64,000 nucleotides of DNA, from the NCBI GenBank assembly GCA_905235685.1, contig CAJOMO010000010.1, positions 247 through 64,246 of the forward strand, read 5' to 3'. Source of the DNA: an uncultured Selenomonadaceae bacterium (lineage in GTDB: Bacteria; Bacillota; Negativicutes; Selenomonadales; Selenomonadaceae). Below, one piece after another: positions 30,173 through 60,493 of the stretch. The notes under the pieces were generated by a model that saw nothing but the letters and a program-made list of their open reading frames with translations, made no database searches and was not told the DNA's origin. Every line of letters begins with the position of its first letter. Within the stretch, counting starts at the first letter, position 1. Both the position numbers and the translations under genes were made by a program.

Positions 30173-31621
30173 ATGAAAGTTCTTTATGTAGCCTCGGAAG
30201 CGAATCCTTTTGTAAAAACCGGCGGATTGGCTGACGTTGCGGGCTCACTTCCCAAAGCTCTCAAAAAGCAGGGCGTTGACGTTCGCGTTATCATTCCCAA
30301 ATTCAGCAAAATCAAGGAAGAATACCGCAATGCTATGGAACACGTTTACGACGGGCAAATTCCGGTTTCGTGGCGCAGTAAATATGTCGGTATCGACAAG
30401 TACGAAGTTGACGGCGTAACTTTCTATTTTGTTGACAACGAAGAATATTTTTATCGCGATGGACTTTACGGCTATGACGACGACGCGGAAAGATTTTCGT
30501 TTTTCGCGCGCGCGATTTTGAACTGCCTGCCCGCGCTTGATTTCTTCCCCGATGTTATCAATGCAAACGATTGGCACGCCGGACTTGTTCCCGTGCTGCT
30601 TAAACTTGAACACATGGGCGACGAACGCTATGCAAATATCAAGACGCTGTACACGATTCACAATCTGAAGTATCAAGGCATTTTCCCAAAAGATGTTATG
30701 GGCGATGTGCTCGGGCTTGACTGGAAATATTTCAACAACGGCGATTTGGAATTTTACGATGCTGTTAACTTCATGAAGGGCGGCATTATTTACGCGGATC
30801 ACGTTTCCACCGTCAGCAAGACTTACGCGCAAGAAATTCAGTACGAATATTTTGGCGAACACCTTGACGGCTTGCTCCGCGCGCGCAAAGATGATTTGTC
30901 CGGTATCGTCAACGGCATTGACTATGACGTTTACAATCCGGCTACCGATAAAAATTTGTTCGTGCAGTATGACAATTCAAATTCCTTCAACGCGTATGAA
31001 CGCAAGGGCGATAACAAAGTTAAGCTTCAAGAAATTCTCGGACTTCCGCAAGACAGGAAAATTCCGGTAGTTTCAATGGTTACGCGTCTCGTTGCCGCAA
31101 AGGGGCTTGATTTGGTCGTCAGAATGATGGATGAACTTTTGCAGCATGAGAATTTCCAATTTGTATTGCTCGGCACGGGCGACAAAGTTTATGAGGATTG
31201 GTTTAAAGGTTTGGCGTGGCGTTTCCCGCAAAAAGTTTCGTCGAACATTTATTTCTCAAACGAACTCGCGCAGAGAATTTACGGCGCGTCTGATATTTTC
31301 TTGATGCCGTCGAATTATGAGCCGTGCGGAATTGGACAACTTATCGCAATGCGTTACGGCGCAGCTCCGGTTGTTCGCGAAACCGGCGGCTTGAAAGATA
31401 CCGTTCACCAGTACGACAAATACGAAGGCAAAGGCAACGGCTTTGTATTCTCGAATTATAACGCGCATGAAATGATGTATGCTCTCAAACGCGCGCTTAG
31501 CACCTATGGCAACTTCGAGATTTGGCTGAATATCGTTTCAAATGCAATGAACAGCGACTACAGCTGGACAGAATCTGCCCGCGAATACAAAGATCTTTAT
31601 GCTAAATTGATGGCGAAGTAA
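30173..31621 (+). CDS. glgA: Glycogen synthase (ADP-glucose type, GT5)
   Basis: 482 aa. MKVLYVASEANPFVKTGGLADV (KTGGL motif) and PSNYEPCGIGQL. Confidence 0.95.
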   Translation: MKVLYVASEANPFVKTGGLADVAGSLPKALKKQGVDVRVIIPKFSKIKEEYRNAMEHVYDGQIPVSWRSKYVGIDKYEVDGVTFYFVDNEEYFYRDGLYGYDDDAERFSFFARAILNCLPALDFFPDVINANDWHAGLVPVLLKLEHMGDERYANIKTLYTIHNLKYQGIFPKDVMGDVLGLDWKYFNNGDLEFYDAVNFMKGGIIYADHVSTVSKTYAQEIQYEYFGEHLDGLLRARKDDLSGIVNGIDYDVYNPATDKNLFVQYDNSNSFNAYERKGDNKVKLQEILGLPQDRKIPVVSMVTRLVAAKGLDLVVRMMDELLQHENFQFVLLGTGDKVYEDWFKGLAWRFPQKVSSNIYFSNELAQRIYGASDIFLMPSNYEPCGIGQLIAMRYGAAPVVRETGGLKDTVHQYDKYEGKGNGFVFSNYNAHEMMYALKRALSTYGNFEIWLNIVSNAMNSDYSWTESAREYKDLYAKLMAK

Positions 31622-31741: not shown

Positions 31742-31758
31742 TTTGCAGAGGTGATTTT

Positions 31759-33047
31759 ATGACGGTCGATAAAAATTTGTTCCTGTACGATTTGGCTGTC
31801 GTGGCGATTATGAAAAATGAAGCGCCGTATGTCAAAGAATGGCTCGATTATCATTTGCTGGCGGGCGTCAATCATTTTTACATTTACCGAAAGCCCCGAT
31901 AATCTCAAGGAAATTCTTCAGCCGTACATTGAGCGCGGGCTTGTGACTTATACTTTTTACCCTGGCAAGTGCAGGCAAATGGAGGCGTATATTTCGGCTG
32001 TCAATCAGTACAAATTTTTCTGTCGGTATATGGCGTTTATCGACGGCGACGAATTTATTTTTCCGCAGGGCAATAAAAATGTAGTTGAAGTTGTTGACGA
32101 AATTTTATCCGACAAACCGCAGGCGGCGGCGTTGGGAATTAATTGGCGTTGTTTCGGCTCGAATTTTCAAGAAACCGCCGATTACAGCCGCGGCGTCCTC
32201 GAAAGATTTACTCGGCGCGCTCCAAATGATTGGCTCGGCGAAGATTATGTTCCGGAAAAAAATAATATCGCCGGCAACGCTCACATTAAAAAAATCGCCA
32301 ATCCGCGCAGGATTAGGTTTTTCGTGAATCCGCATTTCGCCGTGTTGTTTGAAAATCACTTTTCAATTAACGAAAACGGCAAACCTATTTCAAATTACGC
32401 TAATTATCCTGTGACTGCCGAAAAAATTGTTGTCCATCACTACATGACCAAATCGCGCGAAGAATATGCAAGAAAAGTTCAGCGCGGCAACGCTGATCTT
32501 TTGGTTAATCAATACGCAATGGAAAAATTTGCTTCGGAAGACCGCAATGAAATTTTCGACGACAGCATTTTAAAATACCGTGCCGCCCGCCAAATTGCAA
32601 AGGGGGGGGGTATTTGATTTTCAAATTAATTATAACAAAATTTATAATGCGTTGCTGGCGAATTTGGCGCCGACCTTTGCAAAGAATGTTCCGCCGGAGT
32701 CTGTTACCGGCAAGCTGGAAACTTTTTTGACATGCCGGAAATTGGCTGAATACCTGCGCGAAAATATTTTAGACGAAACAGCCGGAAATTTTTTTGAAGA
32801 GGCGGCGCTAAATGCGATTTACAAAACTTTACACACGCAAGTTGCCATTTCAGATTTGAGATTATTTTTCAGCGAGTTGCCGAATTTTTTGGTTTTGAAT
32901 TATCCGGTTGTTGAAAATCTGCGCGAGTTAGCTATAAATTTGATTCAGCAGGTTATGAGCGTTTACCGCCTTCAAAATGCCTGGCGTGAATTTACCAAAT
33001 TGGAATATCTGATGAACATGTTGAAAATTTTTGACACTCACAAATGA
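31759..33047 (+). pseudogene. GT2/GT92-like glycosyltransferase broken into three frames (two frameshifts, one in a G9 tract)
   Basis: Piece 1 (31759-31902, SD AGAGGTGA): MTVDKNLFLYDLAVVAIMKNEAPYVKEWLDYHLLAGVNHFYIY then a stop. Piece 2 (+1 frame) continues ESPDNLKEILQPYIERGLVTYTFYPGK...FIDGDEFIF... to 32617. Piece 3 (32611-33047) continues in the third frame straight after the G9 tract. Confidence 0.8.
32602..32610 (+). repeat. Homopolymeric G9 tract at the piece 2 / piece 3 junction of the glycosyltransferase
   Basis: caaattgcaaa-GGGGGGGGG-tatttga. With G8 the reading frame runs ...AKGGVFDFQINYNKIYNALL..., fusing the two ORFs. Confidence 0.9.
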
Positions 33048-33059
33048 GGAGCTGATTTT

Positions 33060-36000
33060 ATGGATAATACGAATGTTGAGCACAATTCGCAAAACATTTA
33101 TTACCGCTCGATAGTGGGCGCGGCGGAGGCGGGCAGTCACATTCGGCTCGGTATCCGCATTAAAACCAAAGAAATTGTCCGGCAGGTTTTACTGCATACG
33201 TGGGCGGACGGCGCGGGCGAAAAATGGTCGAATCTTACCACGCGCGATAAAAATAATTCCGAAGAAAAATTTTATTCAATCGAAGTTGCCATGCCCGAAA
33301 AAGGCGGGCTTGTCTGGTATTATTTTATAATCGTCACGGCGGACAAAACTTATTATTACGGCAACAATCCGGAGCAACTCGGCGGCGTCGGTCAACTTTA
33401 TCAAGATTACGCGCCGCCCGCATTTCAAATCACCGTTTACCAAAAAGGCGCGAAAACTCCCGATTGGTTTAAGCACGCGGTTATGTATCAGATTTTCCCC
33501 GACAGATTTTACCGCGCGGGTAATGAGATTGTCGAAAAGCGCGGCGCAGTTTATCACGCCAGTTGGAAAGATGAGCCCTGCTATTACAAAGACGTCGACA
33601 CGAACGAAATTGTTGCTTACGATTTTTACGGCGGCAATATTCGCGGCGTCGAGAGCAAATTGGATTATCTGAAGGAGCTCGGCGTTTCGGTGATTTATTT
33701 CAATCCGGTTTTCGAATCCGAGAGCAACCACCATTACGATACCGGCGATTATCACAAAATTGACCCGATTTTGGGAACGAACGAAGATTTTAAACATTTG
33801 ATTGACACGGCGGCGGCTAAGGGTATCAGCATAATTATCGACGGCGTTTTCAGCCACACCGGCAGCAACAGCATTTACTTTAACCGGAATGGGCAGTATA
33901 ATTCGTTGGGCGCGTATCAGTCGAAGGATTCGCCGTATTTTGCCTGGTACAGTTTTAAAAATTTCCCGAATGACTATGAAAGTTGGTGGAATTTCCCGAC
34001 TCTGCCGAATGTTCGCGAAGTTACGCCGTCGTATATGGATTTTATAATTCGCAGTAACGACAGCGTTTTGCACCACTGGATGCGCGAAGGAATTTCGGGC
34101 TGGCGTCTCGATGTCATTGACGAATTGCCCGCGGAATTTTCACAGATGTTTTTCGCCGAATTGAAGAAATTAAATCCGGACGCGGTTATGATTGGCGAAG
34201 TTTGGGAAGACGCCTCAAATAAAATTGCTTACGGCGTGCAGCGTCAATATCTTTGCGGCTACGAAATGGATTCGGCGATGAATTATCCTTGGCGCGCTCA
34301 TTTGTTCGATTTTATTTTGGGAAAAATTGACGGCGAAATTTGCATGAAACGAATGGAAAGCCTGCGCGAAAATTACCCGAAAGAAAATTTCTACGTGATG
34401 ATGAATTTAATTGCGAGCCACGATATTATGAGACCGGTGACGATTTTTGGCGAAGCGCCATACTATGACAAAATGCCGGCGGTTGAACAAACGAAATTCC
34501 GGCTTGACGCGGAACATGAGAAACTCGGTAAAGCGCGCTTGAAAATGGCGGCGCTGTGGCAAATGACGTATCCAGGCGTGCCGTGCGTTTATTACGGAGA
34601 TGAAATTGGAATGCAGGGTTTCAAAGATCCGACGAACCGCAGACCGTACGATTGGGACGGCGGCGATAAAGATTTGCTTGACACGTACAAAAAATTTATC
34701 GCGATTCGCAATGAAAATTTGGTTTTGCAGACGGGCGAATTTCTGCCGTTGCCTTCGCGCGGCGATGTGGTTGCTTACGCGCGCGTTATTCGCAATGGAC
34801 GCGATGTCTTTGACCAGGAAGCGCAAAATGATTCGTTTTTGGTGGCGTTCAATCGTTCGACGGACGCGGCGCAGGAAGTTTCCTTTGACGTCAGCGATTT
34901 TGCAAGCGGCGTTTTTGTTGACGCGTTCGACAGCGAAAATCTGAGTCGCCATTATCCGGTGACGCGCGGGCGGGTCAATTTCAAACTCCAGCCGTTGGAA
35001 GGAATTTTACTTCACCACGTACCGCTCAAGAAAAATTACGACCGTCGCGCAGGAATTTTGCTGCACCCGACCAGTTTGCCGTCGAAATACGGTATCGGCG
35101 ATATGGGCAAAGAGGCGTTTGACTTTATCGATTATCTGAAGGCGGCGGGGCAAACGATTTGGCAGATTTTGCCGCTGAATCCTGTTGGTTTCGGTTATTC
35201 GCCGTATCAGTCGCCGTCTGCCTTTGGCGGCAACCCGATGATTATTTCGCTCGACGATTTGATTTCAAGGGGGTTTCTGCGCGAGGGTGATATAAATGTA
35301 CCAAAGACCTCTTCAAAGGCGGCTACAGTCGAATTTGAGCGCGTTATAAGCCTAAAAAATGCGGCGCTTAGAATTGCGTATGATAATTTCAAGGCGAAAT
35401 TGGAAACCGACGCTGAGCTGAAGGCTGACTTTGAAAAATTCCGTGCGGCGGAAAATTATTGGCTGGAAGATTACGCGCTTTTCGCGGCGATTAAAAAGCA
35501 AAATCACGACGCCTATTGGATTGAGTGGGACGAAGACATTAAGCAGCGCGACGAAAAAACTTTAGCGGCACTGCGCGAGAAACTTGCGGACGAAATTATG
35601 TACGTGGAATTTGAGCAGTACATTTTTGATTCGCAATGGCAGAAACTTCATGCTTATGCCCGTGAGCGCGGTATCGAAATTCTCGGTGATATGCCAATTT
35701 TCGTATCGGCAGACAGCGCGGACGTTTGGGCGAATAAGAAGTTGTTCCAGCTCACTGAGGAAGGGCGCCCCGAAAAAGTTGCCGGAGTTCCGCCCGATTA
35801 TTTCAGCCCTACCGGTCAACTTTGGGGCAACCCGCAGTACGATTGGAACGAAATGAAGGCTGAAGATTATGCCTGGTGGAAATTGCGTTTCAAGAAACTT
35901 TATGAGCTGGTTGACATTATCCGAATTGATCATTTCCGCGGCTTTGAGGCTTATTGGTCGGTGGACGGCGACGCTGAAAATGCGATTAATGGCGAATGGA

Positions 36001-36539
36001 TTAAAGGACCTGGCAAGCCGTTCTTCGACGTTATCAAAAAAGAATTTGGCGACGGCGCAAAGATTGTTGCGGAAGATTTGGGCTTTATCACGGACGAAGT
36101 TGAACAACTGCGGCAAGATTGCGGTTTCCCCGGTATGAAGATTCTGCAGTTCGAGCTGCACTTCAATGAAGACGGGCGAATTGGTTTTGTTGCGCCGGAA
36201 AACAGCCTTGCCTATACCGGCACGCACGATAACAACACGACGGTTGGCTGGTTTATGGAAGATGTTGATAATTTGAGCAAGCCGACGATAGCGGCGCTGT
36301 TGGGTGCTGACGCGCGCCGCCCCGACGATGTTTGCCAAAAACTGATTGAATTTGCCTACGCGTCGGATTCGCGCTTTGCGATTATTCCAATGCAGGACGT
36401 GTTGAAACTTGACAGTCGCAGTAGAATGAATACGCCTGGCACGGTCGGCACGAACTGGGGCTGGCGCTTGAAGTCGGATTATCAGCTTGACGCCGACGCG
36501 GGCAGATTGAAGGCTCTTTGCAATAAGTATTTGAGATAG
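33060..36539 (+). CDS. Fusion protein: GH13 alpha-glucosidase/neopullulanase-like domain + GH77 4-alpha-glucanotransferase (MalQ) domain
   Basis: 1159 aa. GH13 regions DGVFSHTG, GWRLDVIDE, IGEVWED, LIASHDIMR (aa ~150-650). From aa ~655: RRAGILLHPTSLPSKYGIGD, WGNPQYDW, IIRIDHFRGF, VAEDLG, YTGTHDNNT (MalQ motifs). Confidence 0.85.
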   Translation: MDNTNVEHNSQNIYYRSIVGAAEAGSHIRLGIRIKTKEIVRQVLLHTWADGAGEKWSNLTTRDKNNSEEKFYSIEVAMPEKGGLVWYYFIIVTADKTYYYGNNPEQLGGVGQLYQDYAPPAFQITVYQKGAKTPDWFKHAVMYQIFPDRFYRAGNEIVEKRGAVYHASWKDEPCYYKDVDTNEIVAYDFYGGNIRGVESKLDYLKELGVSVIYFNPVFESESNHHYDTGDYHKIDPILGTNEDFKHLIDTAAAKGISIIIDGVFSHTGSNSIYFNRNGQYNSLGAYQSKDSPYFAWYSFKNFPNDYESWWNFPTLPNVREVTPSYMDFIIRSNDSVLHHWMREGISGWRLDVIDELPAEFSQMFFAELKKLNPDAVMIGEVWEDASNKIAYGVQRQYLCGYEMDSAMNYPWRAHLFDFILGKIDGEICMKRMESLRENYPKENFYVMMNLIASHDIMRPVTIFGEAPYYDKMPAVEQTKFRLDAEHEKLGKARLKMAALWQMTYPGVPCVYYGDEIGMQGFKDPTNRRPYDWDGGDKDLLDTYKKFIAIRNENLVLQTGEFLPLPSRGDVVAYARVIRNGRDVFDQEAQNDSFLVAFNRSTDAAQEVSFDVSDFASGVFVDAFDSENLSRHYPVTRGRVNFKLQPLEGILLHHVPLKKNYDRRAGILLHPTSLPSKYGIGDMGKEAFDFIDYLKAAGQTIWQILPLNPVGFGYSPYQSPSAFGGNPMIISLDDLISRGFLREGDINVPKTSSKAATVEFERVISLKNAALRIAYDNFKAKLETDAELKADFEKFRAAENYWLEDYALFAAIKKQNHDAYWIEWDEDIKQRDEKTLAALREKLADEIMYVEFEQYIFDSQWQKLHAYARERGIEILGDMPIFVSADSADVWANKKLFQLTEEGRPEKVAGVPPDYFSPTGQLWGNPQYDWNEMKAEDYAWWKLRFKKLYELVDIIRIDHFRGFEAYWSVDGDAENAINGEWIKGPGKPFFDVIKKEFGDGAKIVAEDLGFITDEVEQLRQDCGFPGMKILQFELHFNEDGRIGFVAPENSLAYTGTHDNNTTVGWFMEDVDNLSKPTIAALLGADARRPDDVCQKLIEFAYASDSRFAIIPMQDVLKLDSRSRMNTPGTVGTNWGWRLKSDYQLDADAGRLKALCNKYLR

Positions 36540-58645: not shown

Positions 58646-60493
58646 TCAAAAACGGGGGGGGGTACTATAATTTTCGCGCAGAAATTTAAGCGTAGTTTTC
58701 GGAACGAGTTTTTTAATTTTGTCGAAGTCGCCGATTTTCAAAGCCTCACGAACGGATTTAGCGCTGATAACTTCCCCGCCAATTTCGCGGCGCGGTATTT
58801 CGCAAAAATCAATTCCGTAGCGCGGCAAAATATTTCTCATATTGTCGTTGTATTGGCGCGTCACGGTATCTTCGGGCTCTTCGCCGACAAAGCGAATGTT
58901 AATCCCAAGCGTCGGCGCAATTTCGCGGGCGAATATTTCAACGTCTTCTGAAGAATCCACCGCCACGTCTTGAAGTTCAGCCTTATTGAAGTAGCCGGAA
59001 AAAGTTTGCTGCGAAATGATAAATTTGCCGCTGGGAATGACTTCGACGTTAGAAAATTTCTTGACGCCGGCTTCAACCAATTTAAATCGGTCGGCGAAGG
59101 CAAATTCGCTCTTGTCTTCCTCGACAACGAAAATGTACAGCTTTTTAACTTTTTTGGAAGCATATTCAATCAGATATTCATGTCCGAGCGTGAAGGGGTT
59201 GCAATTCATGACGATAGCGCCGATTGGAAGGCGTTTCGCGCGCAATTTCTGTTTGTATTCAGCCAAATCTTTATTTTCGCCGAGATTGATACTGCCGGAA
59301 GAAAATTCTTTAGGGACGCCGTAACGATGGGGCGCGGGCGGCGGCGCTGGATAATTGAAATTCACGCCCTGGAAGAAATTATTTTTCGTGAGGAAGTCGA
59401 AAAATTTTTCTGCCAAAACTTTGTAGCCGAGTTCATTGACGTGCGCGGCGTCGACAAAGACTTCGCCGTAATTGTGCGGACGAATAAACGTGCGGCTGAC
59501 GTCGAACGACGGAATAATTTTTGACATATGATTATCGAAAAACACGAAAACTATATCGCCCGCGCTGAATGGCAAAGTCTCAAGGTTGTAAAGAATATCT
59601 TGGTAGCGGTAGGTAAAAAACTGCGAAACATTTTCCACGCGATATTGAAGGTGATTTTTATTCAACATAGCCTGCAGGTAACTGGGAATAGTTTTGTCGA
59701 AAGGCGCGCCCGTGCCGAAATGCGAACAGCCGCCCATAAAATAAATTCGATTTTTGAAAGTATCGGGCTGATTTGCAACGCGCCGTCTGCCGTTAATTAC
59801 CTGCACGAGCGGCTTGTCGCTGTCTTCAAGTATCGTCGAGCCGTCTGGATTAACTTTCGCCTGTGTCAAATTTAAAATATCGCGCAGTTGCTGATTTGTG
59901 TAACCGAGAAAATCATAGGGCGTCTTTAAAACTTTATCCGGATTTTGATTTAATTCTTCGGTGATTGTGGCGAGGCGTTTTCTGTTTGCAATGATTTGCT
60001 TTTCCCAATCGGTATTGTAGGCGTTCTGCGCGAGGATTGTAAAATTGGTAAGGAAAAGTTTAACTTGCGGATGGCGCTGAAGGAAATTGAGCAGCGGAAT
60101 TTCAACGTAGGTGTGAAGAATAAATTGATTCGTCAAATCCGGCAAATAAATAACCGCGTCGAGATTTGCATTCAAGCGGCGCGCGGACAGGAAAAAAATT
60201 TTGTCATAATCGGCGAGGTTGAGCTCGGCAAATTTTTCAATTTTCATTGCGTCAAAAAGCGTGCCGGGGCTCAATTCAATTTTGCGATTATCGCCGTTGA
60301 TAACGCTGAAAGTTGGCTTGACGGATTTATTGAAGTCGAATTGTACGTAAATATCCCAAAGAAATTGCCACTGATTAGCCTCGATAACAACGAACAGCGG
60401 CTTTTTGATATTGTTGTCGGCGCAAAATTGCGGCATTGTGTAGCCCGCCGTAAAACAATCGCGCAGGTAAATAAAAAGTTGTTCGTCAGTCAT
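58646..60493 (-). CDS. Two-domain enzyme: unknown N-domain (SGNH-like?) + citrate-lyase-ligase (CitC)-like adenylyltransferase domain
   Basis: 615 aa. C-terminal third AIVMNCNPFTLGHEYLIEYASKKVKKLYIFVVEEDKSEFAFADRFKLV...IISQQTFSGYF matches the CitC nucleotidyltransferase core. The N-domain is unassigned (IYFMGGCSHFGTGAP). Confidence 0.65.
   Translation of the reverse strand: MTDEQLFIYLRDCFTAGYTMPQFCADNNIKKPLFVVIEANQWQFLWDIYVQFDFNKSVKPTFSVINGDNRKIELSPGTLFDAMKIEKFAELNLADYDKIFFLSARRLNANLDAVIYLPDLTNQFILHTYVEIPLLNFLQRHPQVKLFLTNFTILAQNAYNTDWEKQIIANRKRLATITEELNQNPDKVLKTPYDFLGYTNQQLRDILNLTQAKVNPDGSTILEDSDKPLVQVINGRRRVANQPDTFKNRIYFMGGCSHFGTGAPFDKTIPSYLQAMLNKNHLQYRVENVSQFFTYRYQDILYNLETLPFSAGDIVFVFFDNHMSKIIPSFDVSRTFIRPHNYGEVFVDAAHVNELGYKVLAEKFFDFLTKNNFFQGVNFNYPAPPPAPHRYGVPKEFSSGSINLGENKDLAEYKQKLRAKRLPIGAIVMNCNPFTLGHEYLIEYASKKVKKLYIFVVEEDKSEFAFADRFKLVEAGVKKFSNVEVIPSGKFIISQQTFSGYFNKAELQDVAVDSSEDVEIFAREIAPTLGINIRFVGEEPEDTVTRQYNDNMRNILPRYGIDFCEIPRREIGGEVISAKSVREALKIGDFDKIKKLVPKTTLKFLRENYSTPPRF
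58654..58662 (-). repeat. Homopolymeric C9 (G9 on the + strand) tract inside the last 6 codons of the 615-aa gene
   Basis: Minus strand: agt acc ccc ccc cgt ttt tga (STPPRF*). Confidence 0.9.

Follow-up and report, generated by a model that had tools for sequence, protein, structure and literature searches.

What does a glycosyltransferase gene that is spread over three reading frames represent: a gene in decay, an assembly fault, or a gene caught in one state of a switch? The question is raised by positions 31759-33047 of the 64,000-nt stretch of Selenomonadaceae DNA that was analysed (the window), where three ORFs follow one another on the plus strand: 31759-31902 (47 aa, ending ...HFYIYRKPR*), 31817-32617 (ending ...QIAKGGGI*, with its homologous part starting with ESPDNL at 31889) and 32580-33047 (155 aa). 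The locus and its neighbours are arranged as follows.

30173..31621, + strand: glgA, glycogen synthase of 482 aa, the upstream neighbour; an ORF with Pfam Glyco_transf_5 and Glycos_transf_1 matches on the identical protein in loci L113 and L118
31704..31740, + strand: terminator-like hairpin between glgA and the GT92 gene, with an 11-bp stem and a 9-nt loop followed by U7, found by RNA folding
31748..31754, + strand: Shine-Dalgarno-like GAGGTGA, 4 nt 5′ of the ATG, read directly from the sequence
31759..31887, + strand: GT92 segment 1, codons 1-43 (MTVDKN...HFYIY), frame 1, matching the N-terminus of full-length homologues
31887..31888, + strand: junction 1, where 5 nt (GATAA) are absent relative to other same-strain assemblies and the frame is shifted
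31889..32601, + strand: GT92 segment 2, the remaining GT-A catalytic domain (ESPDNL...QIAK) with a D-x-D-E-F motif, frame 2, matching PF01697
32602..32610, + strand: G9 homopolymer tract, a candidate slipped-strand switch, from the sequence, from the in-frame G7 at the same spot in L001 and from a family hot spot
32610..33047, + strand: GT92 segment 3 in frame 3, an all-helical C-terminal domain (VFDFQINYNK...FDTHK) of 145 aa and a stop codon, joined directly to the catalytic domain in >100 homologues
33060..36539, + strand: GH13-GH77 fusion gene of 1159 aa, the downstream neighbour, with Pfam Alpha-amylase and Glyco_hydro_77 matches on the identical protein

Judged from sequence comparison, 31759-33047 is one gene for a GT92-family glycosyltransferase of ∼429 aa that is read in three frames. 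In Pfam, the middle segment matched Glyco_transf_92 (PF01697; 55.8 bits, E 6.9e-15, cut-off 23) and the first gave a weak GT-A-like signal, while no family match was returned for the last. The three pieces were then read through as a 429-aa query with an X at junction 1, which retrieved 1296 homologues. Among the best 120, almost every protein has a length of 415-440 aa and covers 98-100% of the read-through, and the alignment runs unbroken over both junctions (family sequence HFYIYDNESPDN). Orthologues are thus not naturally split at these points, and the proposal of an earlier note on this DNA, that the three ORFs form a single glycosyltransferase, agrees with this continuity. The named homologues among the best 120 are GT92 proteins of Selenomonadaceae or Quinella MAGs, and homologues have a precomputed PF01697 match. 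A D97-x-D99-E100 motif is invariant in 114 sequences. Outside the two junctions, the 429 codons contain no further stop or indel, and the read-through shares the invariant residues of its relatives.

Fold prediction and fold searching were run on the closest intact orthologue, P0001 (427 aa, 76% identical), in place of the broken window protein. AlphaFold modelled P0001 with a pLDDT of 94 and a pTM of 0.93. In the model, the GT-A domain (residues 1 to ∼280) packs against the helical domain that follows it (∼290-427), and the two form a single body. The position that corresponds to the G tract lies in a lower-confidence surface loop (residues 281-290), between helices of the two domains. The best fold match was the plant GT92 galactan synthase GalS1 (E 6e-10, TM ∼0.43-0.46), which was also the sole PDB match by sequence. 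GalS1 (PDB 8D3T/8D3Z) resembles the bacterial protein in its PF01697 match above the cut-off, its GT-A fold and its DxD motif. However, the two share only 14% identity and the bacterial protein has a ∼145-aa helical C-terminal domain of its own. Another member of the GT92 family is GALT-1 of C. elegans.

The gene also looks like a translational unit of its own, perhaps supplied by read-through, since glgA is followed by the terminator-like hairpin with its U7 and the ATG is preceded by GAGGTGA. The hairpin folds with -16.9 kcal/mol (z -1.78), and was missed by a consensus terminator scan because its loop is longer than 8 nt.

We placed junction 1 by alignment with the syntenic orthologue L001 and with same-strain assemblies. 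The window reads TAC C GAA where the other assemblies read TAC GAT AAC GAA, giving a 5-nt gap between 31887 and 31888 that takes out the nearly invariant Asp44-Asn45 of YIYDNES. The earlier note had guessed from family members that a few nucleotides were lost around 31888-31890; GATAA is what is missing, and the other assemblies do read YIYDNES. These four assemblies (L113/L114 and L115-L117) match the window with 0-1 mismatches over 1.6-8.9 kb, and GATAA is the sole gap. The broken-form protein (P0015) is recorded from a single contig, that of the window, and its cluster mate P0121 (287 aa) has an intact YIYDNES and the same KGGGI* end. Three of the four assemblies have a contig break here: the contig from upstream stops at nt 126-144 of the gene and the one from downstream begins at window position 31870, so that contig ends and starts fall within about 30 nt of the gap. 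One upstream contig carries a TAT variant typical of related species, and the first ∼130 nt of the GT92 gene are nearly identical between species. The junction 1 region is an obvious graph tangle in the metagenome.

In a MAG, a frameshift that involves no repeat can come from a faulty assembly join. Since the deletion occurs in one assembly only and lies on a join, we consider it likely to be an artefact, created where the assembly bridged the recurrent contig break; that it is a genuine private variant of the sampled population is possible but distinctly less likely. Under either reading, the comparison of assemblies indicates that the deletion is not a fixed lesion of the strain. Two other origins for it were considered. 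Direct-repeat slippage between the local ACGA..ACGA would lose 6 nt and not 5, and a tblastn search of the same genome with the N-terminal and catalytic segments turned up just the one GT92 copy, making intragenomic recombination with a paralogue unlikely.

These findings bear on the suggestion that a permanent lesion has overtaken the switch, that is, that a real, fixed 5-nt deletion and an out-of-frame tract mark a contingency gene on its way out. Both lesions are present in the window sequence, a nearly invariant Asp-Asn pair is lost, and a 5-nt deletion is unlike the errors that homopolymers attract. However, the broken form is confined to the window's own contig, junction 1 is intact in four other assemblies of the strain and the deletion sits exactly on the recurrent contig break. 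In a decaying pseudogene, several lesions would be fixed in all copies of the strain; here, apart from the tract, there is one, absent from four assemblies, and the codons outside the junctions carry no other stop or indel and match the invariant residues of relatives. We therefore regard decay, which the earlier note had favoured, as improbable.

The second break, at the G9 tract, behaves differently. A TGA stop (32615-32617) lies 4 nt 3′ of the tract, so that G9 gives a 267-aa frame, whereas G8 or G11 fuses frames 2 and 3 into an open frame of 410 aa. This bears out the expectation that G8 would join the catalytic part to the helical C-terminal extension. Among loci of relatives (651 kb), 43 G/C runs of at least 7 were found, 42 of them inside GT92 genes. 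In every case the GT92 tracts have G on the coding strand, and they occupy only two positions: aa ∼105-116, just after the DxDEF strand, or aa ∼267-288, in the inter-domain loop. The window G9 falls at the latter hot spot. Tract lengths in these loci range from 7 to 11, with about half of the copies in frame. Each out-of-frame copy yields a frame of roughly 400-475 aa once its tract is altered by a single G, which implies that the tract is the only lesion of those copies. The tracts have remained pure and their flanks have diverged. Between close orthologues, the length differs at the same spot (G9 in the window against an in-frame G7 in L001), and other close pairs show G7 against G9 or G9 against G10 at 86-88% flank identity. 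Whole-genome searches of the genus also returned many GT92 matches that break at query residues ∼280-290 or ∼105.

We surveyed G/C runs across the whole genome, a Quinella-like MAG from the rumen (1.96 Mb in 64 contigs, 46% GC). There were 340 runs of length 5, 40 of length 6, two of length 7, five of length 8, 16 of length 9, four of length 10 and one of length 12. Counts therefore drop about 10-fold per added base up to length 7 and rise thereafter, a bimodal distribution with a peak at 9; extrapolation of the decay predicts 0.34 runs of at least 8 in the whole genome, against the 26 observed. A/T runs in the same genome fall monotonically with length. Most of the 26 tracts are intragenic, with the tract length deciding whether two long open frames are joined, and their present states are a mixture of in-frame and out-of-frame. 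The affected genes include five GT2 glycosyltransferases, the GT92 gene at 31759-33047, Caps_synth, a GT2-pyruvyl transferase fusion and a NAD epimerase. Tracts also occur in two DUF4422 genes, in FkbM-type and other methyltransferases, in genes for a radical-SAM protein and a CitC-like ligase (in the window), and in those for flagellin, an MmeI-type restriction-modification (R-M) enzyme and an OmpR-type regulator. The genome-wide count and the association with surface genes were checks that the earlier note had proposed, and both came out in favour of its view of the tract. Together, the genome-wide excess, the occurrence of tracts in surface-glycan, flagellin and R-M genes and the in- and out-of-frame copies at a shared hot spot support the interpretation of the G9 tract as carrying the features of a contingency (phase-variation) tract.

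The note had also remarked that it did not associate such tracts with Firmicute-type genomes. The host belongs to the Selenomonadaceae; as Negativicutes, these are diderm Firmicutes and have LPS and an outer membrane. In a first sample of 24 same-genus genomes, every one had exact G9 runs, between 1 and 21 of them, and genomes of other families of the class had 0-2. Across the family, 102 of the 121 genomes searched had at least one, representing 33 of 39 genera.

If G9 were a homopolymer miscall, the gene would be intact (G8) and constitutive, with no switch. Homopolymers are error-prone on some platforms, and a single length in all assemblies would also fit a systematic call. Yet the same length came from different assemblers (k141, k87, Logan and scaffold-type names), and the genome holds 26 long tracts with a mode of 9 and mixed frame states. 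The same hot spots recur in dozens of MAGs from independent studies, about half in frame, and random errors would not cluster in two loops of one family, always as coding-strand G. We consider a miscall very unlikely.

The G9 tract in the inter-domain surface loop would thus be a candidate slipped-strand mispairing switch, in which G8 or G11 would yield the full GT92 enzyme and G9, the state in the assembly, would be OFF. At G9, translation would end 4 nt past the tract to give a 287-aa protein that lacks the C-terminal domain and is presumably inactive. A different possibility is that the G9 state is not off and instead produces an enzyme that works with its catalytic domain alone, or two polypeptides that come together again, with the tract toggling specificity or localisation. 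The stop does lie just past a complete GT-A domain, in a surface loop. Furthermore, the fold search also ranks the S-glycosyltransferases SunS and ThuS, GT-A enzymes with helical acceptor-recognition domains, albeit with a poor superposition (rmsd ∼24 Å). Against this, the orthologue model forms one compact globule (by its pTM), no Shine-Dalgarno-like sequence is visible 5′ of the GTG at 32580 and frame 3 has no early ATG. In addition, tracts at the other hot spot, aa ∼105-116, truncate the protein inside the catalytic domain, which fits plain on/off switching. An active G9 state seems highly improbable to us. We judge it probable, with good confidence, that the account as a whole is correct: a GT92 gene whose G9 switch is in the OFF state, with the 5-nt deletion standing outside the biology of the locus.

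The tract is G9 in the window and in the four other same-strain assemblies, which show no within-strain variation and are probably not independent. Look-ups with neighbouring genes missed twice, and elsewhere gave stretches of two of these assemblies (L121 and L122, 10.6 and 4.5 kb) that agree with the genome at every base, tracts included, suggesting that the assemblies come from the same or very similar reads. Uniform G9 in five assemblies is therefore no argument for stability of the tract. A scan of JGI metagenomes with tract-flank patterns returned no match. The same genome encodes MutS and MutL with intact open reading frames, leading us to reject loss of mismatch repair as the cause of tract instability; with both present, switching may be slower than in Campylobacter.

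The position of the gene between glgA and the GH13-GH77 gene had been called odd. In L001, the closest relative, the gene order is glgP-glgB-glgA-GT92 (intact, 427 aa)-GH13/GH77-DUF2225-DUF4127, and at many other same-genus loci GT92 copies are flanked by glgA and/or the GH13-GH77 gene. Where both flanks were fetched, 1 to about 3 GT92 copies lie between them. Going by these gene orders, the position is a conserved, copy-number-variable slot of the genus, and the oddity disappears. The copy number in the slot differs between species (loci L035, L091, L098 and others), and tandem GT92 arrays are present elsewhere in the genus as well, on contigs such as G003:C53, G017:C40 and G023:C1. The related loci all come from rumen MAGs (sheep, goat, deer, reindeer and buffalo) labelled Selenomonadaceae, Selenomonadales or Quinella.

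Although the slot lies in a glycogen cluster, GT92 family members are also found in unrelated neighbourhoods, e.g. L002. Phase-variable transferases in other bacteria have surface structures as their targets. In Campylobacter, they likewise act on surface structures (PMC8437040). By analogy, and because the family is not bound to the glycogen genes, we prefer a surface glycan (LPS, capsule or flagellin) to glycogen as the target of this enzyme. The roughly 26 polyG/polyC tracts together would then vary surface glycans, flagellin and an R-M enzyme from cell to cell.

Two known systems offer comparisons. C. jejuni is not known to have MutS and MutL, and both are present here. Its strain NCTC11168 has 29 polyG/polyC tracts of 7 or more (PMC4965091, PMC8437040), similar in number to the 26 of 8 or more in this genome, and in both the tracts are intragenic with a modal length of about G9. 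Tracts are shared by glycosyltransferase, capsule, flagellar-glycan and methyltransferase genes, and one-base slippage is presumed in our case, where switching is deduced from sequence. The organisms differ: C. jejuni is a pathogen of the Campylobacterota with a GC content of about 30%, in contrast to a rumen commensal of the Selenomonadaceae at 46%. In Neisseria, lgtA/C/D/G are LOS glycosyltransferase genes switched by polyG. As with those genes, G tracts here lie within tandem paralogous glycosyltransferase genes of strain-variable copy number in the presence of mismatch repair (for Neisseria phasomes, see PMC5953494). With MutS and MutL present, the Selenomonadaceae system is nearer to Neisseria than to Campylobacter in this respect. 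The enzymes, however, are GT2, GT8 and GT25 in Neisseria and GT92 here, and the GT92 tracts keep to two fixed loops, one that follows the DxD strand and one in the inter-domain linker, in an array inside a glycogen operon.

In the library searched, we found no paper on polyG phase variation in Selenomonadaceae and none on phase variation by homopolymeric tracts in Selenomonas; a broader search on phase variation returned Campylobacter and Neisseria work only. Phase variation, homopolymers and glycosyltransferases are all absent from the text of the Quinella genome paper (PMC9585023). The evidence therefore supports a known mechanism, polyG contingency, in a lineage for which we found no earlier description. 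More broadly, we lean slightly towards the view that rumen Selenomonadaceae of the Quinella group possess a Campylobacter-style phasome, with about 26 polyG switches despite intact MutS and MutL, and including a GT92 family that amplifies in tandem. Phase variation driven by simple sequence repeats has been studied mostly in a few host-adapted pathogens; if this view is correct, the rumen too has stochastic surface variation, in an abundant uncultured commensal, and it is probably directed against phages, protozoal grazing or host antibody. Quinella cells have been reported with both granular and smooth surfaces, flagella have not been seen on them although the gene set is complete, and the group is linked to low-methane sheep (PMC9585023). 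Such a phasome could explain why both surface types occur and why flagella went unseen. Many of the 'split' glycosyltransferases in such MAGs would then be switch states and not pseudogenes.

Several individual tracts merit description. Outside the window, the G12 (C3:7192-7203) lies in the N-terminal helical domain of one flagellin paralogue and is out of frame, G11 being in frame; the genome has eight Flagellin_N matches, corresponding to about seven genes. At C13:17327-17335, also outside the window, a C9 (a coding-strand G9) links a complete MmeI-type R-M enzyme with a further, partial TRD/C-terminal module, and the fusion is a 1091-aa open frame in its present state. From this arrangement, the tract may confer a phase-variable change of the C-terminus or specificity of the R-M enzyme. 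The window itself contains a second long tract, a plus-strand G9 at 58654-58662 within a minus-strand gene (58646-60493), where it forms a C9 in the last codons. The product is a 615-aa protein with a citrate-lyase-ligase-type C-terminal domain, and with one base fewer the open frame of 616 aa would lengthen to 645 aa.

The sequence context of the tracts was also biased. Read in G orientation, the tracts tended to follow a C and precede a T, with C-Gn-T in 14 of 26. The CGGGGGGGGGT and AGGGGGGGGGT forms dominate in same-genus genomes, whereas an A or C at the end is more frequent in the family's other genera. Outside the intragenic majority, the tracts at C9:3724-3733 and C25:3123-3131, both beyond the window, are positioned just upstream or at the extreme 5′ end of the housekeeping-type genes clpX and uvrA, and four further tracts are intergenic.
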